A stretch of DNA of 64,000 bases from Candidatus Latescibacterota bacterium (lineage in GTDB: Bacteria > Latescibacterota > UBA2968), in contig OZ241986.1 in the NCBI GenBank assembly GCA_965204375.1, forward strand, positions 5,216,001 through 5,280,000. The letters run 5' to 3'. Under the pieces are notes generated by a model. That model was not told where the DNA came from and did not search any database. It was given only the letters and a program-made list of their open reading frames with translations. Of the stretch, positions 39 through 32,593 are shown one piece after another (positions within the stretch are counted from its first letter, which is position 1; each line of letters starts with the position of its first letter). A program made the position numbers and the translations under genes.

Positions 39-3000
39 GTTTCAATACCCCAGTAGTCGGGTAATCCTTCCTGATATGGGAAGGTATTCACCTGATGATA
101 TTGCGCGGGCAAGTTTCAATACCCCAGTAGTCGGGTAATCCTTCCTGATAAAATGAGCACAGCGTGCTGCTGACCATTCCGTTCACGTTTCAATACCCCA
201 GTAGTCGGGTAATCCTTCCTGATATTGGCGTGAGGGCCGATGATCGCTGGGCGCCAAGCAGGTTTCAATACCCCAGTAGTCGGGTAATCCTTCCTGATAT
301 TGCCGGTGGTGTAGCAGCTGGTGTTGGGGGTCTCGGGTTTCAATACCCCAGTAGTCGGGTAATCCTTCCTGATGAGGACAACTCGCCGGTTAATTGGGAC
401 AAGGCAGATTGTTTCAATACCCCAGTAGTCGGGTAATCCTTCCTGATGGGGAAGGGGCAGACCAAGAACTTAACTGGTGGGAAGTTTCAATACCCCAGTA
501 AGCGGGTAATCCCTCCTGATTTCGATGTTTTCCACACGTCGCTATGAGCATCATATCACCACGTTTCAATACCCCAGTAAGCGGGTAATCCTTCCTGATT
601 ATTTTGATATGCAGATGTCACACGTCTATCTGTCTGAAGTTTCAATACCCCAGTAAGCGGGTAATCCCTCCTGATCAGGCATGCGCGCTGGCAAGGCATT
701 GCTGGACGTGAAAGGTTTCAATACCCCAGTAAGCGGGTAATCCCTCCTGATTTATGGGTGCATTAGCGCAGAGTTTGATTGGGTAGATGATGTTTCAATA
801 CCCCAGTAAGCGGGTAATCCCTCCTGATATGTAAAATCTTTCGGCGTAAGCGTTCGCGTAGAGGAGTTTCAATACCCCAGTAAGCGGGTAATCCCTCCTG
901 ATTAGGAACGGAATCAAATTCAGCATAGGGCGCAGAACAATGACGTTTCAATACCCCAGTAAGCGGGTAATCCTTCCTGATAAGACAGCAAAACAAAGTA
1001 CGCTTGGGCCTTCTGCTATTAGTTTCAATACCCCAGTAAGCGGGTAATCCTTCCTGATCCGAACGGCTAAATTTAGCTTTCTATTTCTTCGTTTCGGTTT
1101 CAATACCCCAGTAAGCGGGTAATCCTTCCTGATGAGATATTAAGGCGTGCCGGACACGCTTGGCTTCCCATTTGTTTCAATACCCCAGTAAGCGGGTAAT
1201 CCTTCCTGATTTCTGGGCGTCAAACGACCTAACTTACTCATCCGACTATGTTTCAATACCCCAGTAAGCGGGTAATCCTTCCTGATCCGCATTATATACG
1301 GACAATCAAGAGACTGTTCTCAAGTTTCAATACCCCAGTAAGCGGGTAATCCTTCCTGATGAAATCCCAACTTGGTAACGCTTGCGCGTCTCGAAAATCT
1401 GTTTCAATACCCCAGTAAGCGGGTAATCCTTCCTGATTACGTGACGCCAACTTCGGAATACACCCCAGCGAATGGAGGTTTCAATACCCCAGTAAGCGGG
1501 TAATCCTTCCTGATGATCGTATCAAGCAGGCACTCGAAGATGGGTGGCATCAGAGTTTCAATACCCCAGTAAGCGGGTAATCCTTCCTGATGGTCGAGGT
1601 AAAGATAGAGGCGTTTGACCACAAGACAAAGTTTCAATACCCCAGTAAGCGGGTAATCCTTCCTGATTATTTCGCACAAATGCAAGTGGAAGTAGTTGTG
1701 TCACAAGTTTCAATACCCCAGTAAGCGGGTAATCCTTCCTGATTGAAGCTGAAATTTCGGCGACTGCTAACATCTTTGACATGTTTCAATACCCCAGTAA
1801 GCGGGTAATCCTTCCTGATAATTTGATCAGGCACTTGCACAGTTGCGACTCATCGAAAGGTTTCAATACCCCAGTAAGCGGGTAATCCTTCCTGATGGGA
1901 CAATCTCAAATTGCCGGACGGTGAGCAGATGAAAATGTTTCAATACCCCAGTAAGCGGGTAATCCTTCCTGATCTGCTCCCCGAACCGATGGAACAGAGC
2001 GACGAAATCACCGAGTTTCAATACCCCAGTAAGCGGGTAATCCTTCCTGATAAAGAGGGGCAAAAAACGGTTGACCTCTTACGCTCTTACGTTTCAATAC
2101 CCCAGTAAGCGGGTAATCCTTCCTGATGCGACTAACATCTTTGACATCTCCGACATTGCTTGGGAAGTTTCAATACCCCAGTAAGCGGGTAATCCTTCCT
2201 GATCGGAACTGAAGATGATGACGAGTGCGCGGTCCTGGGATAAAGTTTCAATACCCCAGTAAGCGGGTAATCCTTCCTGATAAATAGACGCGAAAGTAAC
2301 CAAAGTTTTTGACGGCAAAATGTTTCAATACCCCAGTAAGCGGGTAATCCTTCCTGATAGGGCAAGGTGGAGTCATCGTAAATATGCTTCAAGTTTCAAT
2401 ACCCCAGTAAGCGGGTAATCCTTCCTGATTTAACCATCCCCTTTTAAAAGCATGTGTAAGTGGATCAAGTTTCAATACCCCAGTAAGCGGGTAATCCTTC
2501 CTGATGAGCGATGAGAAGAAAGCTCGACTGCAAAACGTGATTGAGTTTCAATACCCCAGTAAGCGGGTAATCCTTCCTGATGAAGTGAGGGTGTATATAG
2601 GCGGTGCTTGGATGGGTTTCAATACCCCAGTAAGCGGGTAATCCTTCCTGATTCCTTATAGAGGATGGCTACGATAATCAGATGGGTTACAAGTTTCAAT
2701 ACCCCAGTAAGCGGGTAATCCTTCCTGATGAGGAGCGCATTAGCGATTTGGAGGTTGCGCTTAATGAGTATATTAAAGTTTCAATACCCCAGTAAGCGGG
2801 TAATCCTTCCTGATGAACATGGCTATTGAGTTTGGACCTGACGTTGAGTTGGTGTTTCAATACCCCAGTAAGCGGGTAATCCTTCCTGATGATTGGGCGC
2901 GTGCAGTGGTTGCGTGTGCTGATGAAGATAGTTTCAATACCCCAGTAAGCGGGTAATCCTTCCTGATTTCTCCGTTTGTGGTGGTTCTGTGACTGTCTTT

Positions 3001-3961
3001 TTCCAAGTTTCAATACCCCAGTAAGCGGGTAATCCTTCCTGATTATGTGTGCAAAACTTTGTCGAGTCTGGTCTTGAACGAGTTTCAATACCCCAGTAAG
3101 CGGGTAATCCTTCCTGATTTGCACACTTCAGTCTGGAAAAACTTTCAACGTGAACAGTTTCAATACCCCAGTAAGCGGGTAATCCTTCCTGATGACGATA
3201 TGGTGGAACAAGTACTGGCGGCGGCGCACAGCATGTTTCAATACCCCAGTAAGCGGGTAATCCTTCCTGATTGGATGAGTGGAAGCAGAGTTGCTTGGCT
3301 TGCGAAGAGTTTCAATACCCCAGTAAGCGGGTAATCCTTCCTGATTTGGCGGAGTGTGTTACGGCCACAACAAACCGTAGTGTATAGGTTTCAATACCCC
3401 AGTAAGCGGGTAATCCTTCCTGATGAGCAGGCTGAGTGGATGAGTGGTTTGGGTGGTGAACGTGGAGTTTCAATACCCCAGTAAGCGGGTAATCCTTCCT
3501 GATGTGAGCGCGGCGGGATTGAGTTGGACAGAACGCGGCGCAATGGTTTCAATACCCCAGTAAGCGGGTAATCCTTCCTGATTATCAGGAGTAGTTGGTA
3601 TAGCGATTGAATCCCTATTGGTTTCAATACCCCAGTAAGCGGGTAATCCTTCCTGATGGACGGGTATTTTGTGGCGACACTCCACCGGACTACTACAGTT
3701 TCAATACCCCAGTAAGCGGGTAATCCTTCCTGATAACGCGGTTGAATGGTCTCGCACGTCTCGCGGAGGCCAGTTTCAATACCCCAGTAAGCGGGTAATC
3801 CTTCCTGATTCACTGACGGTATCGCGAGGGACAAATCAGTTGGTAGATTTGTTTCAATACCCCAGTAAGCGGGTAATCCTTCCTGATATCATTGACCCGT
3901 TTGGGGAAGAGGAAGTTTTTATTTGTTTCAATACCCCAGTAAGCGGGTAATCCTTCCTGAT
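39..3961 (-). CRISPR. CRISPR array 1 (type III-associated), ~52 repeats of 37 bp, spacers ~34-48 bp; probably continues left of the window
   Basis: Repeat GTTTCAATACCCCAGTAAGCGGGTAATCCTTCCTGAT on +; the reverse complement ends in ATTGAAAC (typical crRNA 5' tag). Variant repeats are at the low-coordinate end and the AT-rich leader and cas genes at the high end, so transcription is on the minus strand. Confidence 0.98.
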
Positions 3962-4260
3962 ACCATCTGCGTTATTTCCTCTCTCGCAGACGGTTACAAG
4001 GCGGTTTGCGACTCAGGCCATTTTGACATACAAAATCCTCCAAAAAATGAAAATCTGCGTTCAAGTTTATGCTCATAATACACACTCCTGCAAAAGGTTA
4101 GAAATTTGCGACCCACCAGAACATGAGGAAATGCCTCTAATCCCTACGCGCGTTATTCACTACACGCTCAAACTGCCAAAGTGACATTGACAGACACATC
4201 TGGGTCGCATCCAATGGCTTTAAATAGTCTGCAATCTGTCAAATAATATGTTCACTCTGA
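3962..4260 (-). promoter_or_regulatory. CRISPR leader of array 1
   Basis: AT-rich region with no long ORF between the last consensus repeat and the last cas-associated gene. Confidence 0.8.
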
Positions 4261-4265
4261 TCCGA

Positions 4266-5390
4266 TTATACCTCCTCTATCCAGTCGTTGAGATCGGCCA
4301 CAATGCCGGGTAATACATCCTGATCATCTGTTGTTGTATGCACCTTAAATTTCACGCAATAGGTTCCGTTGGAGTATATGCCCTGGACTTCCCCACCCGA
4401 TGGTCGAAACCGAGTTGATTCAGGCAGGTCCGGGTTCCAATACGTTGAGTGGCAAAAGCGGACATAAGGCACCTCATCTATGAGCTTTTGCAGGAACCGC
4501 AAAATGGGAGTACGCGCTTGTCCATATCCATGGTGACCCAAATTGGGAATCTGCTTCTCATTTTCTGTTGCTGGCCGCGGAAGACTTTGGGCTTTTATCT
4601 GCTGAAAACGGGTTCGGAAGGTCTCGTGAAAAATCTGGCCCGTCGCGGAGAGTTCCAGATAGTTCTCGCCATCGATTTCCTCGCGGTTGACCAGTGGCTC
4701 AAAGCGTTCATCCCAATCTTCGCGATACTGTTCCCACGGAACAATATCGCCTTTGCCAAGTACCATAAACATGCCGCTGGCTCGCTGCCAGATCGAAAAA
4801 TCGAGTGCCACTGGCATAGGTGGAAACGGAATAATGGCATCAAAGCGTTCATGCTTGTAATACACGGGAATGTCGAGTGCCTGGCCCATCAAAACGGCAA
4901 TGGCGATCTGGGCTTTATAGCCACCTGTCGCGTTAATTGCGCAAAAGGCTGCTCCAGTTTCACGCACTCGTTCACCAAAAATTTTTGCCAGATTGCGTAA
5001 GCCATGCGTGCGAAAAGCTCGAGGGTCATCATCGCGCAAACCTTCTACGCAATGGGTTGTTACTTGCCAACCATCCGATTGGAAGTAGAATTGTAAAATT
5101 TCCGCAATCGCCTGTCCATCATCCGTATCAGAATGGAGCAGATGGAGGTGGACTTGTTCAATAAACTCCTCTTTGAGAAGGTCCGTTACTGAGTTGATTT
5201 CTGCGCCGCAGAGCCTATCCATTGGCTTTAGTTCGTGCAACAATTCCGCTACTTTCTGCCAGTCTTTTAGGACATACGCCTGGGCCAAAGCAGCGAGGAT
5301 GGGGTCGGGGTCCGCATCCTTGAGCCTGGACAGATTGGGATAGAACAAACTCGTCCCAATGGTGCAGAGGAGTGTATGAGGTTTTGGCAT
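4266..5390 (-). CDS. CRISPR-associated CARF protein, APE2256/Crn1-like family, with wHTH-like linker and an uncharacterised C-terminal domain
   Basis: N-terminal LLCTIGTSL, LLHSDTDDG and INATGGYKAQ...VYYKHERF motifs typical of APE2256-family CARF; last gene of the cas operon. Confidence 0.85.
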   Translation of the reverse strand: MPKPHTLLCTIGTSLFYPNLSRLKDADPDPILAALAQAYVLKDWQKVAELLHELKPMDRLCGAEINSVTDLLKEEFIEQVHLHLLHSDTDDGQAIAEILQFYFQSDGWQVTTHCVEGLRDDDPRAFRTHGLRNLAKIFGERVRETGAAFCAINATGGYKAQIAIAVLMGQALDIPVYYKHERFDAIIPFPPMPVALDFSIWQRASGMFMVLGKGDIVPWEQYREDWDERFEPLVNREEIDGENYLELSATGQIFHETFRTRFQQIKAQSLPRPATENEKQIPNLGHHGYGQARTPILRFLQKLIDEVPYVRFCHSTYWNPDLPESTRFRPSGGEVQGIYSNGTYCVKFKVHTTTDDQDVLPGIVADLNDWIEEV

Positions 5391-5478
5391 AAGGTACTCT
5401 CTAATCAAGGTATGACACGGGTCACTCTGCCCGTGTTGTCCACGCGTTGCACTTTCACCTTAACCGGATTCCAGTGAG

Positions 5479-7050
5479 TTATATTGGAATGACAGGCACA
5501 CGGAACACCTCAAACTTCGATTTATCGTAGGCGTCCAGAAATAGGCGTTTGGCTTTGTTCTGCCTGGTCATCCCCTGTAATACAGTAAGCGTTATCTCTG
5601 CTTCAATCTCTTTTTCCAGATCGATATCCGTGATTAGGGTATGATAAACCGCATCGATATTTGCCCGTTGTGCTGCAAAAAGTGTCAATACAGCCATCCC
5701 TTTGCGCCCACCAGATAAGGATAGATAGATACTTTTATCTGGGGCATCTCCCTGTGCATTCTCAATGACAGAGATCAGTTTTTTGAGATAGATCTCACAA
5801 TCGTCATCAGACGTGACATCTTTAATATCCGTAATGGAAATAGGTTCAAAGTCTATCCGTTTTCGCCTAAACGCCTCCTTCAGCAGGTTCACTCCGTTGC
5901 GAATCTCGGCATTGTTGGGATAAACGACGATGACTTTTTTGAGGTTGGCCTTTTCTCGTTCAGAAAGTAAAGAGAAGGTTTGCGTCACAACCATGGGCGA
6001 TTTTCCAAGTGGAGCAATTAGGATGCTATTGTTTTCGAGTTCATTCACCTGTACACATTTGGGGTGGTTTTTTGACCAAAGTTCCCTTTTTCCATTAGCA
6101 ATGTCTTGATAAGTGGTATTCTTCAACGCGATTTCACAGACTACAACTTCGCCATTGGTTCGATAATAGAATGGGCGTTCAGCGGTCTTTCCCATTTTGA
6201 ATGGCGTGCAATCTGTTTTTGCATTGGCCAATGATTTACCGCGACTTTCTAGCCGTTGCGGATACCGCATAGCTCTAAAACAGTTCCTCAATCGTTTTTG
6301 GGTATCACCACCACGTATTTTTTTTAGCTGCTGATGGGCTGCTTCGGAAAGATAAACATCGAGAAGTTGGATTTTCTCTTTTTGATTGGTTTCTTCTTGC
6401 TGAAAAATCTCGCGATAAAACGCATCTAGCTCACCCTCAATTTCAATGGGGGTCGGTGCATTCGGGTCAGATTGTGTCTCACTGAAGTATTTTCGAAGGA
6501 CAGTGCTATTTGATAAGCGTGGATAGGGAATCTCTACAAGGATCAGGTCATCGTCAGGCGGACTCAATTTTGCCTTTTGTTTCGCTTCCTCAAATTCAAA
6601 TAATTCCTCAATAGAATGGAAATTTCGCTTATTGGGATTATCTTCATGTTTATCCAGAATATGGTACAATCCACAAACGCATTCGAAGAACTGACACGTC
6701 ACGGCCATTAGTGAGGACATGTTCTTGCGTCCACCAGCAAGGGAAAGATAGACTTGATCTTCCTCATATTCGTGGGATTCGATTAAACCCGACAAAATCT
6801 GAAGAAATTTCATTGATGTTTCGCGGCTATTTGTGTCGGAAAACGGTAGGATACATTGATTGACATCGCATTGCTCTTCAAGATGTTCTTTGACCATTTC
6901 ATAGCCCAAGTCAATTAGTTTTTCGCTTTGCGGATGGATGACGTGTAGTAGATCAACCGGTATCCCCTTCTTCGTTTGCAATGCTTTCACCATTGAGGTG
7001 ACGACAATCGGAGATTCACCAAGCGTTGCAATCAGAACATTCTTCGCCAT
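5479..7050 (-). CDS. Tandem CARF protein (NE0113/Csx14-like) with a central RelE/ParE-like domain
   Basis: Two CARF repeats (LIATLGESP...YLSLAGGRKNM...LYHIL; LIAPLGKSP...YLSLSGGRKGM...VYHTL) flank VYLSEAAHQQLKKI...RLRNCFRAMRYP...RPFYYR...VVVCEI. Confidence 0.8.
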   Translation of the reverse strand: MAKNVLIATLGESPIVVTSMVKALQTKKGIPVDLLHVIHPQSEKLIDLGYEMVKEHLEEQCDVNQCILPFSDTNSRETSMKFLQILSGLIESHEYEEDQVYLSLAGGRKNMSSLMAVTCQFFECVCGLYHILDKHEDNPNKRNFHSIEELFEFEEAKQKAKLSPPDDDLILVEIPYPRLSNSTVLRKYFSETQSDPNAPTPIEIEGELDAFYREIFQQEETNQKEKIQLLDVYLSEAAHQQLKKIRGGDTQKRLRNCFRAMRYPQRLESRGKSLANAKTDCTPFKMGKTAERPFYYRTNGEVVVCEIALKNTTYQDIANGKRELWSKNHPKCVQVNELENNSILIAPLGKSPMVVTQTFSLLSEREKANLKKVIVVYPNNAEIRNGVNLLKEAFRRKRIDFEPISITDIKDVTSDDDCEIYLKKLISVIENAQGDAPDKSIYLSLSGGRKGMAVLTLFAAQRANIDAVYHTLITDIDLEKEIEAEITLTVLQGMTRQNKAKRLFLDAYDKSKFEVFRVPVIPI

Positions 7051-7108: not shown

Positions 7109-8077
7109 TCAAACTCTGCTTGACCTGGGATAATGATATTCCGTGTTATCATTTGGATCCCATCGCCAGATGCGACGGAGCGCGTTAAGTGTTTTTGAGG
7201 CTGTGTTATTTCTAAACGATTGAGTCTGCTGTAATAGATAGGCTTCTAAACGCCTTCCTTCCACATGCTCTACCTCCTGATTGACTGTGTAACGACTGGC
7301 GTAGTCAATCAGCGTGAGTTTTGTGATTTCAAAGTGGACGCTACCCAGTCCCGCAGGTTTAGCGTAACCGAGTTTATGGCGCATATCCGGTTCGAGAACA
7401 AGTGCGTAGAGGAGCGTCTGCAATTCGACAGCTTCAAGATTTATAAACTGTGCTGAGAATGCGAATTGACTCTCCTTATTAATCGGCTTGATGTGTTGAT
7501 TAACTCGACTTTTTTGGTTTGTAGTCTGTATTCCAAGCGGTTGATGAAAGTAGAACTTTCGTCCTGCAATATGTCGCCTTTTGGGATCAAAGTAGAGTGC
7601 CCCCTGACCTGGTTTGGGGGCCATGAGCGCGATGGTATAAACTGCCCCATGCTCGTGTATCTTGACTTCAACGGCATCATTGAATGAGACCTTACCGAGT
7701 ATTGATCCTTGAATTGTTCCGAACATTCGACAACCGATGCACAACTTATCGGTGTTACATTTGTGGAAATCGCTTGGCAATTTATTGTTATATTTCTTAT
7801 CAAACAGCAGAAAACAGCCGTTGCCAATCGTTTCCACTAAGTTGCGGAAAAGCCCTTTGAGCGAACTTCCGGGGATAATGTGCTGCTTCTGTTCGTTCTG
7901 GATAAAAGGCTCTGCGCCCTGGTTCTTTTTCGGTGAGTGAAAAATGAAAACGGGTGTCTCTGCTGTAATTGTTCCTTCAATTTTTCCGGATACGCCACTG
8001 AATCTATCATGTGGCAAAGGGCGATCACGTTCAGGGGTGCTGTTCCAGTCAATCGGTACAAAATCATAAGGATTCAT
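7109..8077 (-). CDS. Type III-D RAMP (Cas7 group, terminal Csm5-like subunit)
   Basis: MNPYDFVP start, IIPGSSLKGLFR, GRKFYFH, KLGYAKPAGLGSV G-loop. Confidence 0.9.
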   Translation of the reverse strand: MNPYDFVPIDWNSTPERDRPLPHDRFSGVSGKIEGTITAETPVFIFHSPKKNQGAEPFIQNEQKQHIIPGSSLKGLFRNLVETIGNGCFLLFDKKYNNKLPSDFHKCNTDKLCIGCRMFGTIQGSILGKVSFNDAVEVKIHEHGAVYTIALMAPKPGQGALYFDPKRRHIAGRKFYFHQPLGIQTTNQKSRVNQHIKPINKESQFAFSAQFINLEAVELQTLLYALVLEPDMRHKLGYAKPAGLGSVHFEITKLTLIDYASRYTVNQEVEHVEGRRLEAYLLQQTQSFRNNTASKTLNALRRIWRWDPNDNTEYHYPRSSRV

Positions 8078-8628
8078 GAGACTTCCTCCAGATGTCGAAA
8101 GCGGTAAAATTCCAGCGCACCGGTTTCTAAATTCAGATAATGTCGCGCAGATAATTTTATGCGGGATTTGTTATTTTCACTTGAGACAGGATAATGCAGC
8201 AACCGCGGGATTTGTAATTCGAGAAATAAGTTTGTTGTCTCTGGCTGACCAATCAATTCAAGGGTATCTTCTGTCATCTTTTCACCCCAAAGATAGTAGC
8301 TATCATCCTGATGTTCAAAATCGGACAATGCCCTGGTAGCAAGCATTGGCAACTCTTTCGGTTCACCGATGTAAATGACCGTAAAAGTGCTGTCCTGCTT
8401 TTCCCATCGCAACTCAAAATCGTCGTGAAAGATGCGTCCCTGTTCCCATGCCTCAAAGTTTTCACTTGCGTCGTATTGCCGCAGACAGATTCCTTTTTCT
8501 CGCTCATCGTCAGACAAGAAAGTGCTCGGTACACGTTCAAGCATCATCAGTGACTTTGGGGGGCAGTCCAACGCTTGGACGATCGGAAGCAGATTTTCAG
8601 TTGTTCCCCAACAGATATTTTCTATCAT
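8074..8628 (-). CDS. csx19: Csx19 (type III-D signature subunit)
   Basis: GRIF...ELRWE, YYLWGE and C-terminal YRF pattern; position between RAMP genes. Confidence 0.8.
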   Translation of the reverse strand: MIENICWGTTENLLPIVQALDCPPKSLMMLERVPSTFLSDDEREKGICLRQYDASENFEAWEQGRIFHDDFELRWEKQDSTFTVIYIGEPKELPMLATRALSDFEHQDDSYYLWGEKMTEDTLELIGQPETTNLFLELQIPRLLHYPVSSENNKSRIKLSARHYLNLETGALEFYRFRHLEEVS

Positions 8629-8630
8629 TT

Positions 8631-9680
8631 TCAGTCTCCGATACGTTGAAATTGCAGGTGTTCAAACTGCATCTTTTGAGGGATGCTCCACAACTTAATC
8701 TTATCAACAAATGATTGAACAGAGGCTTGTTTGAGGACATTGAGGCTATCATCCGAGAAAGTAGTGGTTTTGCGGATACCGTGTGTCTCCTCATTGGGTG
8801 GTGGTTGAATAGTCAATTGGTCATTCGTATCCGTACCATAAGAATTATCGCCCAGGAATTTTCCCAATCCCCACACATTCTCTGTGGGTTTTCCATTCAC
8901 TGCGCCGATGTAATTGACTGACACCTCAGAAATTTCACCCTTGACGTTTCCAAGTCCGCGTGACCTCCCAGAACCAATACGGATCAAGCCATCCTCCAAA
9001 TCTTGCACAATGAGCATTAGCATTCCGAGTTGCCATACCTCAAAGTTTCGCATGTAAATACCTGTTTCAAACGCGACACCGGACGAAACGACTTCCAAAT
9101 CGAATTTGGCTTGACCTGCTGCGCCACCAGTAAACCGATCAATGCCAACTCCATCGCGTTGCTCGGTTTTTTCTTGACTGTCTTCAGCAAGGTAGGCATC
9201 TGAGATGGCGACACGTCCAATGAACGAAGTAGAACCAAATAAGCGACATGCCGGACAAGAATCGCGATAGACATCTTTATTTAACAAATCTTCTTTTTTA
9301 CGCTGCCATTGGGCGTTGTTAATCCTCCATTGATCTCTTTGGCGCACCTCAAATTTATCGCCACACGAAACTTCAGTGTAATCGAGACAGACAAGCTGAT
9401 TTTGTTTTTTCTTTGGCTGTGTCTTGACAAATGGATTGCAAACGACACCATCTTTAAGTGTACGGATCACTTTTTCAATATGACTTCGAAAGACACCCTT
9501 CAGCGAACTCCCCGGTAGATAGACCTCTGTTTTACCATTGCGGTAAGTTCGGACAGGTGTCATATCTGGACCCGAAACAGTGCCATGTCCCGATTTGACA
9601 AGCACAGGGCCTTCAGTGTGAATTGTGAGATTGAAACGGCATTCATTAACAAGTCGCTTGAGCATTTTCTCCTCCTTCAC
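8631..9680 (-). CDS. Cas7-group RAMP (Csm3/Csx7-like)
   Basis: YLPGSSLKGVFRS, CPACRLFGS, RDGVGIDR, IGSGRSRGLG. Confidence 0.92.
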   Translation of the reverse strand: MKEEKMLKRLVNECRFNLTIHTEGPVLVKSGHGTVSGPDMTPVRTYRNGKTEVYLPGSSLKGVFRSHIEKVIRTLKDGVVCNPFVKTQPKKKQNQLVCLDYTEVSCGDKFEVRQRDQWRINNAQWQRKKEDLLNKDVYRDSCPACRLFGSTSFIGRVAISDAYLAEDSQEKTEQRDGVGIDRFTGGAAGQAKFDLEVVSSGVAFETGIYMRNFEVWQLGMLMLIVQDLEDGLIRIGSGRSRGLGNVKGEISEVSVNYIGAVNGKPTENVWGLGKFLGDNSYGTDTNDQLTIQPPPNEETHGIRKTTTFSDDSLNVLKQASVQSFVDKIKLWSIPQKMQFEHLQFQRIGD

Positions 9681-10489
9681 GCACTTTGTGAAAGTAGTGC
9701 TCCAATATGATTTTCTAGAAAACTATCCATATTATTAATTTTTTTCATTTTATCTTCGAGTGTTTTGCCGATCAGGTACTGGCGCAACCGATCATCTCTT
9801 GTCCCATCATCTGTTAAGTCCAATTCATAGCCGGCAAGATCAATGACCTGGCAGTTACCCAGTCCCCGTGAGCGCATGCCGCCGATTCCACCCATGCCGC
9901 TCGCAAACTCATTCAATCCCACGCAAGCCAAACACAGGTCGGTATCACTCGGACCCTCCAGGACGATTTCCATTTTGAATGTCGAACCAACAGAGACGAC
10001 TTCATAATCGTACTTCAACCCATCGACAGCTCGCTCACTATCTCGGTCAATCGCCACGCCATCGCGCACTTGTGTGGCTTCTGCCCATTCGTCAACGTAC
10101 AGGTCGGTAAAGAAAATTTTAGAAGCAGAAAACGGTGAGCCAAAGAGTTTGCATGTATCACATAGTTCTTCGTTAAGAATTTCTGCGAGTTTAGCTTCAC
10201 TCCAGTTACCAATCCTCCGACGGTTGTTGAAGTTTTCTTGATTGGCAGTTGGACAATCGCCTTCAGACAAAGAACAAGTGGTTCGATTTGGAATCACGCC
10301 AACCAATTTTTCAATAGTACTCCGAAACACACCTTTGAAACTGGAACCGGGTATAAAAGGCTCTCCTTCAGGTGTGAGAACAACAGGACTATCGGTGCCG
10401 CGTAGATTGATATTTCCACCGCCAATATGCATGGCGGATTTCAATTTCAATTTTCCAGTAAACACGTATTTCCTGCTCATTTCACGCAT
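9677..10489 (-). CDS. Cas7-group RAMP (Csm3/Csx7-like)
   Basis: MHIGGG, DSPV, FIPGSSFKG, CKLFGS, RDGVAIDRD, IGGMRSRGLG. Confidence 0.92.
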   Translation of the reverse strand: MREMSRKYVFTGKLKLKSAMHIGGGNINLRGTDSPVVLTPEGEPFIPGSSFKGVFRSTIEKLVGVIPNRTTCSLSEGDCPTANQENFNNRRRIGNWSEAKLAEILNEELCDTCKLFGSPFSASKIFFTDLYVDEWAEATQVRDGVAIDRDSERAVDGLKYDYEVVSVGSTFKMEIVLEGPSDTDLCLACVGLNEFASGMGGIGGMRSRGLGNCQVIDLAGYELDLTDDGTRDDRLRQYLIGKTLEDKMKKINNMDSFLENHIGALLSQSA

Positions 10490-10925
10490 TTGATAGACTC
10501 CTTTGGTAGTTGTATTCAGCGATTAAATGTTGGATAAATTCCTTCGCCAAAAGATAGGCATACCGATCAATTTCTGCACTCACTTGCCGCTTTTGAGCAC
10601 GTCCCATTTCTTTGGGTTTTACGACAAGTTGAGTCTCCTCAACCTGTTTGGGCAGTCCGTTGAGGTAATCTTTCAGGTTTTGGTAAAATTTCTTCAATTC
10701 ATCGGGGGTTGTATTCCTATTGAGTCGATTATCAATGTAGCGGAAAATTTCACCCTGATCGCTTGCGCCGACAGCGTTCCAAAGACCGCTCAATTGGGAA
10801 TTTGAGATTTTTGAGTGGGCATGCTTTGCGACAAGATCAACGGCATCACAATAGAGTTTCCCATCACTCAACAGACGGATCTGTTGCGCCTGTCCAATTG
10901 TCACTGCCATCTCATTTACCTCCAA
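10482..10925 (-). CDS. Putative small subunit (Cas11/Csm2-like)
   Basis: ~147 aa, all-helical character, SQLSGL motif, C-terminal EFIQHLIAEYNY; overlaps both neighbours in the operon. Confidence 0.65.
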   Translation of the reverse strand: MEVNEMAVTIGQAQQIRLLSDGKLYCDAVDLVAKHAHSKISNSQLSGLWNAVGASDQGEIFRYIDNRLNRNTTPDELKKFYQNLKDYLNGLPKQVEETQLVVKPKEMGRAQKRQVSAEIDRYAYLLAKEFIQHLIAEYNYQRSLSNA

Positions 10926-11340
10926 CTGTCACTTGATATTCGTAATGCACGACCAATTGACTCACAAATGCACGGATGAGGCTCAGATAGATGCGCTGTC
11001 CTTCAGATGTGTTTTCCTCGACACTTTCGAGTTTTCCACAAATCTCTCGTCGTCGGACGCGAAGACTTTGTTCAATATAGTCCTTCAAGCGCTCGCCAAA
11101 GTTATTCTTTCTCCAAGTTTGGTGCCTGTCATCCTTTGCAACCTGTTTCTTGATGTAATCAAGTACATCCGTTACCTTGAGCGTGGAATTTGCAATATTT
11201 TCGAGGTTTGTCATCTGGCTTCGGTGACGAGATTCAAATGCCTGTGAAGCGGCGTCTCCAAGTTCCTTTGCCCGATTATAAAAATCATCGCGATCAGTGA
11301 CCTGAGCAATTTCTTTAAGGATTTTCATTTGTTGGTTCAT
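10912..11340 (-). CDS. Putative small subunit (Cas11/Csm2-like)
   Basis: SQMTNLENIA, YIKKQ..K...W, C-terminal AFVSQLVVHYEY; resembles the adjacent gene. Confidence 0.7.
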   Translation of the reverse strand: MNQQMKILKEIAQVTDRDDFYNRAKELGDAASQAFESRHRSQMTNLENIANSTLKVTDVLDYIKKQVAKDDRHQTWRKNNFGERLKDYIEQSLRVRRREICGKLESVEENTSEGQRIYLSLIRAFVSQLVVHYEYQVTVGGK

Positions 11341-12584
11341 AATTCGTTGACCTCCCTATGAAAGGCATCGGCAATCATAACTTGCCCAAAACCTTCTGAC
11401 CGGCGTTTGCCTATGCCCTTCTGTTCAATGTCGTAGAGTTTCTGATAAAAACGTTCATCAGGTGTTCCGTTATATCCAAACAGAAAAACAGAACCCATTG
11501 AAATCGCCCACTCTGCCGCTTTAGGCAATCCCAAAAGGGCGTTCCAGCCGATTACACGACGTTGGCCTGCGTTTTGGTAAATCAATGCTATATCCTCTAA
11601 ATCCCACATATCACGCAAGTAAGTCTGATCAAGAGCCATTTGATAACGCAACTGATGATCGAGAAGAATCGCATCAGATTGAAGCGTGATCGGAAAGTAG
11701 AATTCATGCGGCAAATCAACATCATATCTTTGCGCTTCAGTGTGAAACTTCTCACTAAATGCTCCAGCCCGCTTTTTTAAAGACTCCATAGCATCAGTCC
11801 TGAAAGCTTGGATTTGTGGAACGCCAAGTTTTCCCAATCCTCGCGTCAAGTTATTTCCTACTCTGAGTATCCCTTTATCCCCGACATCCTCTGCAAAATC
11901 GTAAAAATCATCATGTAGCGATTCATCAGCAAAGGATATAGTTCCCCAGAACGATTGTCCTTCATTAAGGACTTCACGATTATAGAGGATACCTTCTTGC
12001 ACGGTTCCTGTTTCTCGACTGATTCCCGTTCGGGTCAATAAACGAGTCTTTACTTCTGATTGACCAATTTCCGCAACATCCTCCCCACGACGGTAGAAGC
12101 CAGAAAACGTATCAAGCAACTCGCCACATCTTCCATGATTATCAGAGTAGGTGCAATTCTTATGTGGTTCGAGGATTTCAACCTTTATCTGCCCACTCAA
12201 TGCAAACAATCCCCAATAGATGAGGCTATCCATGACTCCGTGACGCTCTTTATCGCGTTCATTCGCCTTAAAACGGAAACCGCTGAATCGTTTACAAGAG
12301 CGAGCGGTCTTCGGTATCGGTTTTATTGGTTGCTCATTGTCTTGCAGATCAGTGTCTGAAAAATCATTAAAGTTTGCCGGATAGAGATTGCCAAAATGGA
12401 TCTCTCCAGAGAGGAAAAACTTTGCAAATTCATCTTTATCATCACGAGCTTTGCGATGCGCCGCCGCAAACGCCCCTAACAATGCGGTACCGGGAATGTA
12501 TTTGAGTGTATTAAAGCTTGCCGTTGAACGAGACACACGAAAGTTCAGCGGAGATTCCGATGAAACGATCAGTCTTGCTTTCAT
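11337..12584 (-). CDS. csx10: Csx10 (Cas5 group RAMP)
   Basis: YIPGTALLGA, FGNLYP, RTGISRETGT, VGNNLTRGLG, GWN...LPK, GIGKRRSEGFG. Confidence 0.9.
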   Translation of the reverse strand: MKARLIVSSESPLNFRVSRSTASFNTLKYIPGTALLGAFAAAHRKARDDKDEFAKFFLSGEIHFGNLYPANFNDFSDTDLQDNEQPIKPIPKTARSCKRFSGFRFKANERDKERHGVMDSLIYWGLFALSGQIKVEILEPHKNCTYSDNHGRCGELLDTFSGFYRRGEDVAEIGQSEVKTRLLTRTGISRETGTVQEGILYNREVLNEGQSFWGTISFADESLHDDFYDFAEDVGDKGILRVGNNLTRGLGKLGVPQIQAFRTDAMESLKKRAGAFSEKFHTEAQRYDVDLPHEFYFPITLQSDAILLDHQLRYQMALDQTYLRDMWDLEDIALIYQNAGQRRVIGWNALLGLPKAAEWAISMGSVFLFGYNGTPDERFYQKLYDIEQKGIGKRRSEGFGQVMIADAFHREVNEL

Positions 12585-13315
12585 TCCGCATCCTCCTGTG
12601 CCATTTCATAGTATTCCAATTCACCCAGACTTTCCAATAACTTTGCAACTTCAATTGTTTTATCATTGATTGTCATTTTTTGTATTTTGCAATCATATTT
12701 GCCCATTCCCGTTGATTTGTTTGCGCCGATTCGGTCATTGGTACAAATGCCTGCAACCAATAACAGCAGCGAATAGCTCCATTCATTTTCGTCGATATGC
12801 AATCCTTCGAGATAGCCGTAAATTCGCCCTTCAAAGCAGAGTGTCTTGATGCCAAATTCGCTTTGGAATAGGGCTTGTTCACGCACAGTACCCAGAACTC
12901 GAGATATACTCGTTTGTGAGCGCTCCTCTGTCTGGAGGTGGATGTATCTCTTTGACTTTTGAGAATTATCAAAGAGATCTTGATCTTCTTTAGTCATTGT
13001 TGCATTGTCGAAATAGAGTTCGCCCGGTTTGTAGCGAGAGCCGAAGATTCTATCAACAATGTCGATAGTATTGCAGAAATCCGAAACCGCTTCTTGCTCA
13101 TCATGTGGACTGACAGCCCGGAGGCCAACCAGACGAGCGATCTGTTCACACCTCTCGCGCAATACACCTTTCAGCGTTGAGCCAGGAATATAGAGATGAT
13201 CGTGCGCATCTCTACTGACACTGCGGTCTAATAAATTTCGACGCAATCCAGTCCCAAAGTGGAAGGGCGTTTCAAACTGGATATAGTAATCAATGCTAAT
13301 AAAGTCTCGTCGCAT
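12581..13315 (-). CDS. csm3: Cas7-group RAMP (Csm3-like)
   Basis: FHFGTG, YIPGSTLKGVLRE, RIFGS, IGANKSTGMG. Confidence 0.88.
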   Translation of the reverse strand: MRRDFISIDYYIQFETPFHFGTGLRRNLLDRSVSRDAHDHLYIPGSTLKGVLRERCEQIARLVGLRAVSPHDEQEAVSDFCNTIDIVDRIFGSRYKPGELYFDNATMTKEDQDLFDNSQKSKRYIHLQTEERSQTSISRVLGTVREQALFQSEFGIKTLCFEGRIYGYLEGLHIDENEWSYSLLLLVAGICTNDRIGANKSTGMGKYDCKIQKMTINDKTIEVAKLLESLGELEYYEMAQEDAE

Positions 13316-14964: not shown

Positions 14965-15893
14965 GAAGCTGTTTTAAAACCCTGGCGTTTAAGCAAGTCT
15001 GTTAATTAAGAGATAAATCATACCGATGTGAATAAAGGCTTCACTGTTGTCCGTTAAGCGTTCATAATCCTTTGACAGTCGGCGGAAATTGAATAACCAA
15101 GCAAAGGTGCGTTCAATGACCCAACGGCGTTTGACTATTTGAAAGCCTTCCCCTTTTGGGGTAACGACCTCAAGATCAATCTTATGTGTTTGTTTTCTAT
15201 CAGCGACCCATTCCTTGAGGTCTTCGCCGCGATATCCGCCATCAACCCACAGCTTGCGTAAGCGTGTCACGCCTGTTTCAAAATACTGATTGAGCACCTT
15301 TTTGAGGCCATCACGATCTTGGAGATTAGCCGGTGAGACATAGGTGCTGATGACCAGTCCGAGGGTATCGACAAGCAGATGGCGTTTTCGTCCATTGATC
15401 TTCTTTCCCGCATCGTAACCCTTTGAGTCTGCTTGTGTTGCTGTCTTAACACTTTGGCTGTCAATACAGCCTGCTGATGCGTCAGGCTTGCGCCCTTGCC
15501 GTTTGCGCTCCCTACGTGAGAGTGCTTGTTGCACCTGCTGAAAGATGTCTTGCTCGCGCCATTTGTTGAAATAGCCATACACGGTTTGCCAACAGCCAAA
15601 GGTATGAGGCAGCATGCGCCATTGGCAGCCCGTCTTCGTCAGATACAGGATGCCATCAAACACGCGTCGCAAATTGGCAGGTGGACGTCCGGGACCTCCT
15701 TTTTGCCATTTGCGTTTGGGCAACAAGGGGATCAGCAGTTGCCATTGCGCTTGGGTGACATTTGTCGGATATTGTCTTGGCGTATTCATCGCATGTCCTT
15801 TCTTTTTAAGGTTTTTGGATACCCTAAATTTGGACTGATGAATACGCTTTTTCAACTCTTTTTTTTATTTCTCCATAATTTTAAAACAGCTTC
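14965..15893 (-). mobile_element. IS5-family (IS1031-like) insertion sequence
   Basis: 15-bp perfect terminal inverted repeats GAAGCTGTTTTAAAA (14965-14979 / 15879-15893); 3-bp TCA target duplication (14962-14964 / 15894-15896). Confidence 0.93.
14989..15789 (-). CDS. IS5-family DDE transposase
   Basis: TGCQWRMLP, IDSQSVK, GRKRHLLVD, VDGGY, KRRWVIERTFAWL. Confidence 0.95.
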   Translation of the reverse strand: MNTPRQYPTNVTQAQWQLLIPLLPKRKWQKGGPGRPPANLRRVFDGILYLTKTGCQWRMLPHTFGCWQTVYGYFNKWREQDIFQQVQQALSRRERKRQGRKPDASAGCIDSQSVKTATQADSKGYDAGKKINGRKRHLLVDTLGLVISTYVSPANLQDRDGLKKVLNQYFETGVTRLRKLWVDGGYRGEDLKEWVADRKQTHKIDLEVVTPKGEGFQIVKRRWVIERTFAWLFNFRRLSKDYERLTDNSEAFIHIGMIYLLINRLA

Positions 15894-16535: not shown

Positions 16536-17492
16536 TCACACTTCATCCTTCACACTTCTTCCTTTTATAGCGTATTGTCCCATCCCAAAGCTGGTCCACT
16601 TGCCCACATGCATTGGTACGCCCAGTGCCAGTAGTGGGTGGAATTGTGTCATGTCGCCTTCAAAGACGACATTTCCTGTGAAACCGCTCACGTTCATGCG
16701 TCGGTTCTTGCGGTTTGAATATCGCTCCCATGTGCGCCAGGTCAAGTTGTGGGATGTGGTTTGAACATTCTCTGCCGTTGAGATATAATCGGCATAATCC
16801 AAATCTGGCGGTCCATCTGCGTGAAATGCGGCCAATGCTGAATACCGCCGCAACAGTCCGCGTATGAGCACGGGGAAATCCAATCCGCGCTGCAATATCC
16901 GGTCTGCTTTGAGTTGTGTGGGGGTTACAAATGAGAGGCGAATCCGGGATCCGATTTTGTTGTGCATTAAATCGCTCGCTGCCAGATGTGGCACATCTTG
17001 TAACATCTCGCTCGTCCCGTCGTACACCGTCTGCCATGTTCCATCCGGGTGCAGAGCTTCGCCTGAAATGAGATCGCATTTGCCGCGTCCGCGTCCAATA
17101 CCTGTGTCTCCCATTCGCTGGAAGGTGTAGATGAAATAGGGCATGTAATTCAGTGCTCGGCCAATGAGGGTCAGACCAATCGCAAACTCGTCGTCCGGTG
17201 CGTAATCGGTTTTGGTTTCCAATGGCGGTTCGATCAAATAGGGATGGGGTGCCTCGCTGTACCCGCGAAAAATGCCTTGTGCATTCTCCACTGGCGTGTC
17301 AAATATGTATGGATACACGCATTGCGTCCGAACGAGACATCGCTCGCACTCGCCGTGTTGCACAATACAAACCGCACGCTTAAATGACACGCCAAAAGCC
17401 CCGCGAAATGTGGAGCCTTTATAGGGTGGCAGGCGCAGATTATCTCGTGCTTTGAAGTGCAGGCGCATATATGCGAATTCGAGTGTAAACAT
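16536..17492 (-). CDS. cas6: Cas6 pre-crRNA endoribonuclease
   Basis: YKGSTFRGAFG, CxxC..C, PHPYLIEPP, F.TP, HVGKWTSFGMGQY G-loop. Confidence 0.95.
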   Translation of the reverse strand: MFTLEFAYMRLHFKARDNLRLPPYKGSTFRGAFGVSFKRAVCIVQHGECERCLVRTQCVYPYIFDTPVENAQGIFRGYSEAPHPYLIEPPLETKTDYAPDDEFAIGLTLIGRALNYMPYFIYTFQRMGDTGIGRGRGKCDLISGEALHPDGTWQTVYDGTSEMLQDVPHLAASDLMHNKIGSRIRLSFVTPTQLKADRILQRGLDFPVLIRGLLRRYSALAAFHADGPPDLDYADYISTAENVQTTSHNLTWRTWERYSNRKNRRMNVSGFTGNVVFEGDMTQFHPLLALGVPMHVGKWTSFGMGQYAIKGRSVKDEV

Positions 17493-18059: not shown

Positions 18060-19736
18060 TCAAGTCAAGCCATATTCTTTGGCTCTTCTACTCAGCGTTG
18101 ACCGATCCATACGTAGCATCTTCGCGGCGTGTGCAATAACTCCCTGCGTTTGCTCCAGCGCGTCTTGAATGATCTTTTTCTCAAATTGCGCTACCTGCTC
18201 GTCGAACGAACCCTGAAAAATATCCGTATCCTCTTGATCAAATAACACATCGGGCGTAATCCATTGATCTTCTGGTGTCACAATAGCTGCCCGTTCAATA
18301 GCATTCTTTAACCCTCGGATATTGCGGGGCCAATCATAAGCCTGCAACGCACGCATAGCGTCCTCTGTAAAACCCGCAAATTCCTTTCCTTCATTCTCAG
18401 AAAAACTTTTCAAAAAGTGATGGGCAAGCAATGGAATATCTTCTCGTCTTTCCTTGAGTGGTGGCAACTCAATTTTTAAAGAAAAACGGCTTAGCAGATC
18501 GCCTCGAAACGCGCTTTCCTCTGTATTCAGGTTTTCATTGGTCGCGGCAATAAGGCGCACATTCACCGATATATCTGTCTCGCTGCCCATCCGTCGTATC
18601 ACACCGTCTTCCATGACTCGTAACAACATGCCCTGCACATCGGGTCGAAGCGAATTGATTTCATCGAGAAAGAGCGTGCCATTATTTGCTTGTTCAAACA
18701 AACCCTGACGCTGCTTGTTTGCGTTCGTAAATGCTCCCTTTTCATGACCAAACAATTGACTTTCCGCCAGATCTCCTAATCTCGCACAGTTTTCTGGGCG
18801 ATATTTTCCTGTTCGATCACTCGCTTTGTGCAGTGCAGAAGCAACCAGTTCTTTGCCAGATCCGGTGGAGCCTGTGATCAATACTGAATGACTATAAGGC
18901 GCATATAGTTTAATGTCCTTCTTAACATCCTGAATGCTGTCACTCTGACCAATAATTTCTGGAAACGCATCTTCTGCGCCCGATGCAATCCGCTCTATAT
19001 ACTGTTCTTGCATCTGCTTTGCGTAATCATTGACTGCCTGCTGTGTCAATCTCAGGGTGTCTTCAGTATATTGCCCGGGGGCTACAAATTGCACCACATC
19101 GCGCAATCGACAAAATGGCACGTCAGCCAATTCGATGCTCACAGTATCGCTCATGACTTTCTGGCCCCTGACGATTAGAGATTCCTCCTGTCCTGTACTG
19201 CGATTAAATACCATAATCGGTTCAGGCTTCTCTGGTGGATAATAATAGGACGCATCGCTTCGTTCAATCTCGGGCACGGAAACCAGAACGTGATAAAGCC
19301 GGTCTTGTGGCCGACCAAAAAAGTGAATGGCTGCCCCCAGTATAAAGCCCATAGATTTTCTTCCACCGGCAAGCGAGCAGTGCAATGCCACTTGATCATC
19401 CTGCGTCAGTGTCTCTATCAATTCAAAAATGCCGTCTCGCGCAATGCGATTCTCGTCAGAGGTGCGGATATCGTCTAAAAAGTTGCCCTTGGCGTCTTCG
19501 AATACGTGTATCTGATCGGTGTCGAAAACAGGCTTGGGATCGATATTGTAATCCGACAGCATCTTTTCAAAGCGGCCCTCGTCTAATAGGCGTTTCTGGC
19601 AGATTTCTTTGCCTACGGTTGTCGTTATCACAAATACTTCATTGATGGGCACCTTGCGCTGGACACGCAATGCCCAGAAGGTTTCTGTCATAACTTGTGG
19701 TGTGTTGCCGACTACAGCGACCAATTTGTGTTGCAT
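18060..19736 (-). CDS. CARF (NE0113/Csm6-type) - sigma54-interacting AAA+ ATPase - Fis-type HTH transcriptional activator
   Basis: CARF: VVGNTPQVMTET, LDDIRT, LHCSLAGGRKSM, GRPQDRLYHVLV, YYYP, LADVPFCRL. AAA+: GSTGSGKE, ESQLFGHEKGAFTNA, GTLFLDEI, RLIAATN, FRGDLLSRF, WPRNIRGL. HTH: AAKMLRMDRSTL. Confidence 0.93.
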   Translation of the reverse strand: MQHKLVAVVGNTPQVMTETFWALRVQRKVPINEVFVITTTVGKEICQKRLLDEGRFEKMLSDYNIDPKPVFDTDQIHVFEDAKGNFLDDIRTSDENRIARDGIFELIETLTQDDQVALHCSLAGGRKSMGFILGAAIHFFGRPQDRLYHVLVSVPEIERSDASYYYPPEKPEPIMVFNRSTGQEESLIVRGQKVMSDTVSIELADVPFCRLRDVVQFVAPGQYTEDTLRLTQQAVNDYAKQMQEQYIERIASGAEDAFPEIIGQSDSIQDVKKDIKLYAPYSHSVLITGSTGSGKELVASALHKASDRTGKYRPENCARLGDLAESQLFGHEKGAFTNANKQRQGLFEQANNGTLFLDEINSLRPDVQGMLLRVMEDGVIRRMGSETDISVNVRLIAATNENLNTEESAFRGDLLSRFSLKIELPPLKERREDIPLLAHHFLKSFSENEGKEFAGFTEDAMRALQAYDWPRNIRGLKNAIERAAIVTPEDQWITPDVLFDQEDTDIFQGSFDEQVAQFEKKIIQDALEQTQGVIAHAAKMLRMDRSTLSRRAKEYGLT

Positions 19737-19761
19737 ATCGTTATCCTCTTGAGACATCTCA

Positions 19762-22704: not shown

Positions 22705-22769
22705 GCTGTTTTCTCCGTGCATCACTTTATTTGTCTGCGCCGTTCTACTTTTATACGATCAACGATCAT

Positions 22770-24008
22770 TTACTCAAGATGATCGCCAATGCCGTTCTTG
22801 TTTTTATCTGTAACGCCGGAGAGGGGATGCTCCACCACCGCTTTCCAGACGATTTCGCGGAAAATTTCGTCAAGGTCGGCGCTTAGGAAACTCGGATTCC
22901 TATTGAACTTGATAGGCGCTGAAATGAGTTCGGGGGATTTGCCGTAGAGCGTGGCGTAGAAGACATAGCCCTCCAGGCGGTCGAAGCCGGGCCCCAAGTG
23001 GCCGCGTTGGTCTGCCCAGATAGAACTTTCTTTTCCGCCAATGACCTTATACAGGCCTTCTACGCCGGGAAGCTCTCCTCGAATGAAGCGTTTGGCCGCC
23101 TCCGTCATGGCGGCGCGCGTCGGCAAGATGTAGACTTCATCGGTTGATTCGCGCAGCGTTTTCACGAAGTCCGCAAAGCCAGTGTTCACAGGGGCGTTGA
23201 GCTGATCGAAGACCGCATCGGTGAAGAACGCTTCAGACTCCGGGTTTCCTTTCCGACTGAAGACTCTCTGGACCTGAGATAGCGTGGGCCAGCCGTCGAT
23301 GAGAAAAAACTTCATGCCGGGATTGTATTGTTCGCAGAAATCGATCCAGCATGTGTAAAATTCTGGACGATCACCGACGTAGGGTCCCCAGATCATCGCC
23401 TCCCATTCCGCGTTGGAAATAGCAGACAGCAGTTTGGGCAGGGGCTTGCCGTCGAATTGGAAGATGCCATTTTCCTGCTCCCATTTGTAGCGAACGCTGC
23501 CCCTTTCCCCGCCGCCGTTATGCAGGCAAAAGGGCTGCTCGAACCCGGCGGCACGGGTGATGGCGGGTAAGGTTCTGTAGCCGGGCGCAGTGAAGCTGTG
23601 GCCCGTGCCCACGATGCGCATGATGCCGTCGGCAGGCTTGGGAAAGGAAAGGGCGTCGCTCGCATCCACATAACTTCGACCCGCAGGGCCGCGCTTATAA
23701 ATTGCCATAATCTCATCAGGCGTCTTAAAGCTTACCGCGTGTGGCGGGAATTCATCCTTCTCCCAGCCGGGATGAAATCTCCCCTTCCATTGCGCTGCTG
23801 CGGCCTCAGCTTGCTCCTTGTGCGCGCGGGCGGCCTTGATCTCCTCTGCGGTCAGCTTGCCATCGCCATCCGCATCCGCGCCAGGATGTTGCCTGAGGAA
23901 TCGAGACAGTTCTTCTTCGGAGAACTGTTGCGCTTGCGCATTCGAGAAGGGTGCGGCCGCCACCAGGGCGAGGATCACTAAGAGTAGGATTGGGCGTTGT
24001 TTGTTCAT
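22770..24008 (-). CDS. Secreted hypothetical protein with an EF-hand-like motif and a possible SGNH-like domain
   Basis: Signal peptide, DADGDGKLTAEE, VGTGHSF, D..GH. Confidence 0.7.
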   Translation of the reverse strand: MNKQRPILLLVILALVAAAPFSNAQAQQFSEEELSRFLRQHPGADADGDGKLTAEEIKAARAHKEQAEAAAAQWKGRFHPGWEKDEFPPHAVSFKTPDEIMAIYKRGPAGRSYVDASDALSFPKPADGIMRIVGTGHSFTAPGYRTLPAITRAAGFEQPFCLHNGGGERGSVRYKWEQENGIFQFDGKPLPKLLSAISNAEWEAMIWGPYVGDRPEFYTCWIDFCEQYNPGMKFFLIDGWPTLSQVQRVFSRKGNPESEAFFTDAVFDQLNAPVNTGFADFVKTLRESTDEVYILPTRAAMTEAAKRFIRGELPGVEGLYKVIGGKESSIWADQRGHLGPGFDRLEGYVFYATLYGKSPELISAPIKFNRNPSFLSADLDEIFREIVWKAVVEHPLSGVTDKNKNGIGDHLE

Positions 24009-24202
24009 GGTTCCTCCTTATTAACTGATATTTCCCACATACAACCGCTCGCGCCTATCGCGAACAGGTTTCAATTATATTATCGACGTTTCCCTGCGTG
24101 CGAACCATCAAGGTGCCTTTCCATGTCCCGGAGAATCACCATCTTGGCGTTCGGTATGGCCTCCTGGGTATCCCACTGGGCCTTGAGCACCACATCTCCT
24201 TT

Positions 24203-25795: not shown

Positions 25796-25859
25796 GCTGT
25801 TTTCTTTGTTCATTCTGGCGCTCCTCTGGATATTGGACACAGATAGCCTTGTTTCTACC

Positions 25860-26025
25860 ATGGGAACCCTTCGGTCGGCGTCGCCGTGGAAGATCCAAAT
25901 GGGGATGTGCTTGATCTTTGGGGCTTCTTCAGGCGCCCATGCTGAGGCGATGGGAATGGCCGCTGCAAAGGTGTTCGGGCGGGAGACAATGGCGCCGAAG
26001 GTTCCGAGGCCGCCCATAGATTCGA
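25860..26025 (-). pseudogene. Fragment of an alpha/beta-hydrolase (esterase/peptidase)
   Basis: SMGGLGTF...FAAAIPI...IPIWIFHGDAD..VP, with no N- or C-terminus. Confidence 0.7.
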
Positions 26026-26030
26026 TGGAC

Positions 26031-27476: not shown

Positions 27477-27496
27477 TCTAGATTTCCCCTTTATTT

Positions 27497-29083: not shown

Positions 29084-29110
29084 ATTGTCTCCTTTTCCCA
29101 TTGTTGGACC

Positions 29111-30761: not shown

Positions 30762-30767
30762 ATGGAA

Positions 30768-32557: not shown

Positions 32558-32593
32558 CACCCTCTGTCCTCTTCCCTCCAAATCCATACAACT

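Follow-up and report, generated by a model that had tools for sequence, protein, structure and literature searches.

What does a protein do that places a RelE domain between two CARF domains and is encoded at the end of a type III CRISPR operon? In type III systems, target RNA activates Cas10. The CARF sensors are, to our knowledge, almost all symmetric homodimers. The gene that raises the question lies in the 64,000-nucleotide stretch of Latescibacterota DNA analyzed here (the window), in a segment that is open on the minus strand only and closed on the plus strand, and it reads as 523 codons (Table 1). From the N- to the C-terminus, the protein is fully covered by a first CARF domain (CARF1), a linker, a RelE domain and a second CARF domain (CARF2), with which the chain ends. 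The stretch separating the two CARFs comprises about 165 residues, about 50 of linker and about 110 of RelE, rather than the segment of about 90 residues estimated in the original prediction.

Table 1. Features of the CARF-RelE-CARF gene and its operon, and variants of the protein in related loci. Positions without prefix are those of the window.
Feature	Position	Strand	Details
CARF-RelE-CARF gene	5479..7050	minus	523 aa
CARF1, residues 3-177	6520..7044	minus	motif I G11-E12-S13, D72, motif II G107-R108-K109, S19
Linker, residues 178-228	6367..6519	minus	two helices, zero strands (model)
Cami1-type RelE domain, residues 229-338	6037..6366	minus	K272, K285, R292, K310, Y314
CARF2, residues 341-521	5488..6030	minus	motif I G349-K350-S351, Q357, D411, motif II G448-R449-K450
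CARF7 (APE2256)-DUF2103 gene	4266..5408	minus	PADLOC E 1.6e-121; directly downstream
III-D effector operon	7109..13315	minus	cas7, cas5 (csx10), two small-subunit-like genes, cas7, cas7, csx19, cas7 with insertion
Cas10, 511 aa	13333..14868	minus	GGDD intact; no HD domain detected
cas6	16536..17492	minus	profile match
CRISPR array	39..3961		52 repeats in window, 76 in total; runs beyond window start
CARF-CARF forms, 412-420 aa	L035:4025-5263, L036:9986-11248, L040:323-1579		
TIR + CARF-RelE-CARF fusions	P0163, P0175, P0178, P0184, P0185, P0193, P0200, P0201, P0208, P0213, P0215		TIR N-terminal in 10, C-terminal in 1

That both outer domains are CARFs of the NE0113/Csx14 type, as had been proposed, was borne out by three sets of profiles, each of which matched two stretches of the protein: Pfam Cas_NE0113 (E 8e-32), TIGR03642 Csx14 (above cut-off) and the PADLOC profiles CARF5 and CARF3, the latter scoring nearly equally (E 2e-39 for CARF3 vs 1e-43 for CARF5). 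The APE2256 (CARF7) profile, in contrast, had no match in the protein. The predicted LG.SP motif is present in each half (LGESP at 10-14, LGKSP at 348-352). The second predicted motif, S.GGRK.M, also occurs in both, but its true form is one residue longer, SL[AS]GGRK.M (SLAGGRKNM at 103-111 in CARF1 and SLSGGRKGM at 444-452 in CARF2). CARF1 and CARF2 are 29% identical over 133 aligned residues. Conservation was analyzed in 65 representatives with less than 70% identity, selected from 152 sequences after two RelE-less ones had been set aside. D72/D411 and the GRK motif of either half hardly vary in this set. The residues equivalent to those of Sso2081 are kept in both halves, i.e., motif I (GES/GKS), D72/D411, RK108-109 and RK449-450; for Sso2081 itself, motif I, Asp75, Arg105 and Lys106 are described as binding or cleaving cA4 (PMC10018336). 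At the position of Sso2081 Glu17, CARF2 has Gln357 in 65 of 65 representatives, whereas CARF1 has Ser, Ala or Gly (S19 in the window copy). The consensus of motif I is G-[ED]-[SH] in CARF1, where Ser is replaced by His in 24 of the 65, and G-[KE]-[ST] in CARF2. Judged by these residues, the two halves of the pocket differ in a conserved manner, and both carry ring-nuclease motifs.

A full-length model, built from 115 sequences, of which one was the query and 114 came from 120 listed matches, reached a pLDDT of 91.9 and a pTM of 0.90. When its Foldseek matches were re-ranked with VIA-align, the best matches to single CARFs were the CARF of Cad1 (Z 18.8) and Sso2081 (Z 18.6). Both CARFs together superposed on Can1 (250 residues, 3.4 Å, spanning 3-521 of the model) and on Csm6-2 (297 residues, 4.9 Å). 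The confident model and the joint match to Can1 agree with the pseudo-dimeric arrangement suggested at the outset and predict that CARF1 and CARF2 pair in cis, within one chain. All CARF1s and all CARF2s form separate groups in a quick tree with midpoint root, as were all three trees of this study, and CARF7 sequences are separate as well; the pairing of the two CARFs thus appears to predate the spread of the family. CARF1 and CARF2 may stem either from a duplication inside one gene or from the joining of two genes; CARF3-WYL sequences were placed beside CARF2 (SH-aLRT 85) in this tree, one outgroup row of which, L039, is non-homologous.

The pattern of RelE/ParE toxins recognized earlier in the middle of the protein was confirmed by sequence profiles and by structure prediction. 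The PADLOC CARF_RelE profile matched residues 212-320 (E 2e-9), and a profile of 33 middle-domain sequences matched YoeB structures (E 1.7e-5 and 3.3e-5). The domain folded alone gave a pLDDT of 91.8, and its top match in Foldseek (E 4.8e-4) was Cami1 (Crf7, CARF-RelE; PDB 8phb, 8phj), reportedly described by Mogila et al. in 2023. VIA-align, used to re-rank 678 Foldseek matches of the domain, also placed Cami1 first (8phj 261-381; Z 12.4, rmsd 2.5, 110 residues), with a match over the full length of the domain, C-terminal extension included; the best other entry had a Z of 9.7, RelE, ParE and YoeB toxins came after Cami1, and the ParE structures among them had a Z of 8-9. Profile-profile comparison of residues 9-327 with Cami1-like proteins gave a probability of 99.3 and an E of 1e-20; a profile run against one distant Cami1-like protein, that of L030, had no match. 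The middle domain is thus a RelE fold, specifically of the Cami1 type, which is unannotated because Pfam recognizes no family for it in any of 33 members.

In an alignment to chain 8phb made through Cami1-like intermediates, RelE positions 272, 285, 292, 310 and 314 correspond to H306, K317, R325, H343 and Y346, of which R325 and H343 are, as we assume, catalytic residues of Cami1. R292 is present in 63 of the 65 representatives, Y314 in 61, K285 in 52 (a further 8 have His) and H272 in 50, and position 310 is variable, with H in 28, E in 23 and K in 11. The window copy keeps K285, R292 and Y314 (the K/R/Y triad), and both His positions of 8phb, 272 and 310, are Lys. Mean identity among the representatives is 28% for RelE vs 45% for each CARF.

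In Cami1, CARF and RelE are separated by a complete winged-helix domain, the part that binds bL12. The linker of the CARF-RelE-CARF proteins, with a family median of 47 residues, shows no wing in the model, and only its last element aligned clearly in profile-profile comparison, namely with the element that immediately precedes RelE in Cami1-like proteins. The linker end therefore seems to be a winged-helix stub, the complete winged helix of Cami1 being absent from the model. The predicted complex of the protein with the C-terminal domain of bL12 from its own genome scored 0.17, against a mark of 0.32, which speaks neither for nor against an interaction.

The type III context that had been assumed for the gene was found as well, and more precisely the locus is of type III-D, with cas10, csx10-type cas5, csx19 and cas7 with insertion all recognized by PADLOC and TIGR profiles. 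The CARF-RelE-CARF gene is the last of the operon and starts 58 nt behind the end of the preceding III-D genes; a scan for promoters and terminators gave results at chance level. The CARF7-DUF2103 gene that follows is predicted to be a second effector and is not a conserved neighbour in related loci. A transposase-like ORF, recognized by eye, lies between cas10 and cas6 (14989-15855, minus strand). A gene on the minus strand (18060-19757), which lies about 3 kb upstream of cas10, encodes a fusion of CARF5, a sigma-54 AAA+ activator and a Fis-type HTH, a candidate cOA-responsive transcription activator, and a 30-codon copy of its start is found near 30768-30857. The window further contains four to five paralogous segments that are 60-95% alike (21263-37005), short tandem 10-mers (at 38848, 50583 and 60698) and a further CRISPR array, whose repeat differs from that of the first (62676-63975; 20 copies, spacing 65-68 nt). 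Past the far end of the first array, genes for a CRISPR-associated primase-polymerase, cas1 and cas2 are located (L053:6384-9612). A second III-D locus of the same genome, at about 3.918-3.950 Mb (L051, L052), includes a Cad1-like CARF-adenosine deaminase, a TIGR02221 CARF protein, a fusion of Cas7-insertion and cold-shock domains, a primase-polymerase and cas1.

To place the gene in a wider context, 46 loci were compared from GTDB genomes with titles that point to Latescibacterota, Poribacteria, Chloroflexota and organisms of the Desulfobacterota type. Eight lacked enough upstream DNA; in 35 of the 38 informative ones the gene directly follows the gene for cas7 with insertion, and the remaining three show only a partial or weak match. 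Its occurrence is patchy, with 3 of 168 genomes in the phylum of the window, own genome counted. The GGDD motif was present in all 26 Cas10s recovered, and an N-terminal HD domain in none, from which we expect any defence that goes beyond target cleavage to depend on signalling. Some loci deviate in other genes of the operon. In two genomes (L002:6487-7329, L005:6541-7358), one cas7 is divided at a similar point into two neighbouring ORFs, by either a natural split or a shared frameshift, and in L024 the place of the second small-subunit gene is taken by a 959-aa ORF (3666-6545) with a partial match to it, an unexplained fusion.

Other effector genes neighbour the CARF-RelE-CARF gene in several loci: Can2-like in L004, L008 and L030, Csx1-like in L020 and as a fragment in L007, Cam1-like in L006 and L011, SAVED genes in L019 and L042, and Cami1-like genes directly adjoining it in L030 and L033. 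Can2, Csx1, Cam1 and Cami1 are all listed as cA4-binding families in the supplement of PMC12669027. A gene for Csx15, of a ring-nuclease family, co-occurs in five loci. Five genomes were searched as a whole for Cas10 and eight families of CARF and SAVED sensors. Four of them have other CARF or SAVED genes, three with further CARF genes and G170 with one Cas10 and a SAVED gene about 55 kb away. G169, a single chromosome, has one Cas10, and the CARF-RelE-CARF gene was the only sensor found; no other effector was recognized in its flanks or, for the eight families, genome-wide. For the effector families searched, the protein is thus strictly the sole effector in one of the five genomes. A sole-effector reading for L001 and L011, based on 10-kb flanks (123 of 201 neighbouring ORFs and 3 others), was overturned by the whole-genome searches.

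A profile of the RelE domain matched 132 proteins among 1.84 billion representatives. According to domain profiles, 72 of these have the layout CARF-RelE-CARF, 16 RelE-CARF, 6 CARF-RelE and 38 RelE only, where the two-domain forms could be contig fragments. A Pfam scan of 48 matches identified 22 Cami1-like APE2256-RelE proteins and 11 TIR fusions of the CARF-RelE-CARF family; the Cami1-like CARF7-RelE proteins are the nearest sequence relatives outside the family. A search of the ESM Atlas gave a single cluster of 76 members, named only NE0113. Three proteins of about 510 aa (P0216, P0234, P0242) have the same type of RelE near the C-terminus and no Pfam match, and represent an unrelated RelE fusion. 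The CARF-RelE-CARF proteins form a real, conserved and apparently uncharacterised effector family.

Natural variants of two kinds were found. In three of 37 aligned loci, RelE is cleanly gone while both CARFs and the linker are kept, and in two of the three (L035, L036) the gene holds the same operon position as CARF-RelE-CARF. These CARF-CARF proteins are candidate single-chain ring nucleases or sensors, and their retention without RelE indicates that the scaffold is selected without the toxin. In the TIR fusions, RelE has mostly decayed, and in P0184 the CARF motifs are broken too; the K/R/Y triad is present in 2 of the 11 vs 44 of 52 full-length forms without TIR. A link between gain of TIR and decay of RelE was considered and is not proven: 8 of the 10 TIR forms placed in a tree fall into one clade that includes decayed non-TIR forms, and two separate TIR fusions outside this clade retain the triad (quick tree, midpoint root).

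We consider it probable that the protein acts as an mRNA interferase that is gated by cOA and limits itself, with an asymmetric cis pocket and a single RelE. Target RNA would cause Cas10 to form cyclic oligoadenylate (cOA), which would bind in the predicted pocket between CARF1 and CARF2 and thereby release RelE. By analogy to Cami1, RelE would then cut mRNA in the A site of the ribosome and stall translation, and the motifs shared with Crn1 and Cad1 suggest that both CARFs slowly degrade the activator, which would make the response self-limiting. As the winged helix is only a stub, closure of the CARFs is likely coupled to RelE by a route other than that of Cami1. The Lys residues at 272 and 310, the variability of position 310 in the family, the RelE-less relatives, the lower identity of RelE compared to the CARFs and the other CARF or SAVED genes in four of the five genomes searched as a whole count against this reading. 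So do the adjacent Cami1-like genes in L030 and L033, since the two effectors would be redundant if their ligand and target were identical.

With respect to the ligand, we slightly favour cA4, because of the co-occurring effectors and the kinship with Crn1 and with Cad1, whose CARF is described as binding and cleaving cA4 (PMC12669630). As the two halves of the pocket differ, cA3, cA5 or cA6 might also serve; the published Cas10 determinant of cA6 vs cA4, helix 17, is described for type III-A. An odd-numbered ligand is conceivable in view of the asymmetry and the precedent of Csm6-2, the fused exception among the CARF sensors, which is described to have an intramolecular CARF pair with cA5 as ligand and to require tetramerisation for activity (PMC13187428). 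It seems unlikely, though worth considering, that fusion of two diverged CARFs around one RelE gave rise to an asymmetric pocket reading an odd-numbered messenger (cA3 or cA5), that the translation toxin is gated without capture of the ribosomal stalk, and that CARF-CARF is a reusable chassis from which RelE was deleted or in which it was replaced by TIR. If this were true, III-D would gain a second signalling channel beside that of cA4, which would explain the coexistence with Cami1-like genes.

The ring-nuclease motifs might alternatively mean that the protein serves chiefly as a ring nuclease in a single chain, i.e., an off-switch, with RelE as an accessory or in the process of being lost. 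Both CARFs have motifs I and II of the Crn1 type, Csx14 is counted in the Crn1 family (PMC12409355), CARF-CARF forms exist, and one clade shows decay of the RelE triad. We regard this as rather improbable because the triad is kept in the non-TIR full-length forms at a frequency comparable to that in Cami1-like proteins (18/22), and the RelE-less L036 and L040 fall together as one branch inside the RelE-bearing forms (SH-aLRT 98 in a quick midpoint-rooted tree), which points to one nested loss. Moreover, a pure off-switch would have nothing detected to switch off in G169, and the five loci with Csx15 already possess a separate gene of a ring-nuclease family. A cOA-activated RelE effector that works as a dimer or a larger oligomer, as in Csm6-2, where the intramolecular CARF pair does not suffice, would be invisible to a single-chain model; however, RelE domains have a self-contained active site and the model is confident without partners, so we give this little credence. 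Equally improbable is a RelE-fold domain with another target (free RNA, tRNA or rRNA) or a ParE-like non-nuclease, a reading that derives from the missing ribosome-capturing winged helix, the matching ParE structures and the frequent Glu or Lys at position 310, since Cami1 is the top structural match across the whole domain and Cami1-like proteins are the closest outside relatives.

The proteins extend type III CRISPR signalling by a conserved effector family that is apparently uncatalogued and is tied to one type of III-D operon in several phyla. The family would allow a direct test of how breaking the symmetry of the pocket changes the choice of messenger, and of what turns on a Cami1-type RelE whose winged helix is incomplete, with the RelE-deleted and TIR-fused relatives as ready controls. 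The original prediction had not recognised the architecture as characterised, and neither CARF-RelE-CARF nor RelE-CARF occurred among the matches listed in full-text literature searches, although the supplements of Makarova 2020 and Mogila 2023 might list it. In the 2025 classification, RelE is listed only with Crf7 in supplementary file 1 part 2 of PMC12669027.

Among the known systems, Cami1 shares with our protein the type of RelE with aligned Lys, Arg and Tyr, its position C-terminal to a CARF and the type III context. Its CARF, however, is of the APE2256/CARF7 and not of the NE0113/Csx14 type, its winged helix is complete, and it is a homodimer with two RelE domains, whereas here each chain has two different CARFs and each pocket one RelE. 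The protein would thus resemble Cami1, which is described to cut ribosome-bound mRNA (PMC11229360), in its action, but by CARF clade and winged helix it falls outside Cami1/Crf7. Can1 (PDB 6sce) also has two CARFs in one chain around another domain, as reflected by the joint superposition of the model, but differs by nuclease domains of the PD-(D/E)xK type (PMC12669027 supplement), the lack of RelE and an identity of only 11%; here, RelE is the sole non-CARF domain. Csm6-2 (Crf8; PDB 9w3u, 9w3v, 9w3w) has a fused CARF pair with a composite pocket and occurs in III-D loci, but arose by whole-gene duplication as CARF-HEPN-CARF-HEPN and is a tetramer with a HEPN RNase, a domain absent here. Of Can1 and Csm6-2, our protein has the principle of paired CARFs only. 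Cad1 (Crf5) and Crn1/Sso2081 provide the closest CARF folds and share motif I, motif II and the Asp, but both are homodimers. The CARF5/Csx14 domain with motifs I and II of Crf5 is present in our protein, whereas Supplementary Table 2 of PMC12669027 lists Crf5 only as CARF alone or CARF with adenosine deaminase, architectures unlike CARF-RelE-CARF. Crn1, defined as a small stand-alone CARF of <250 aa (PMC12409355), lacks an effector domain, in contrast to the 523 aa and three domains found here.
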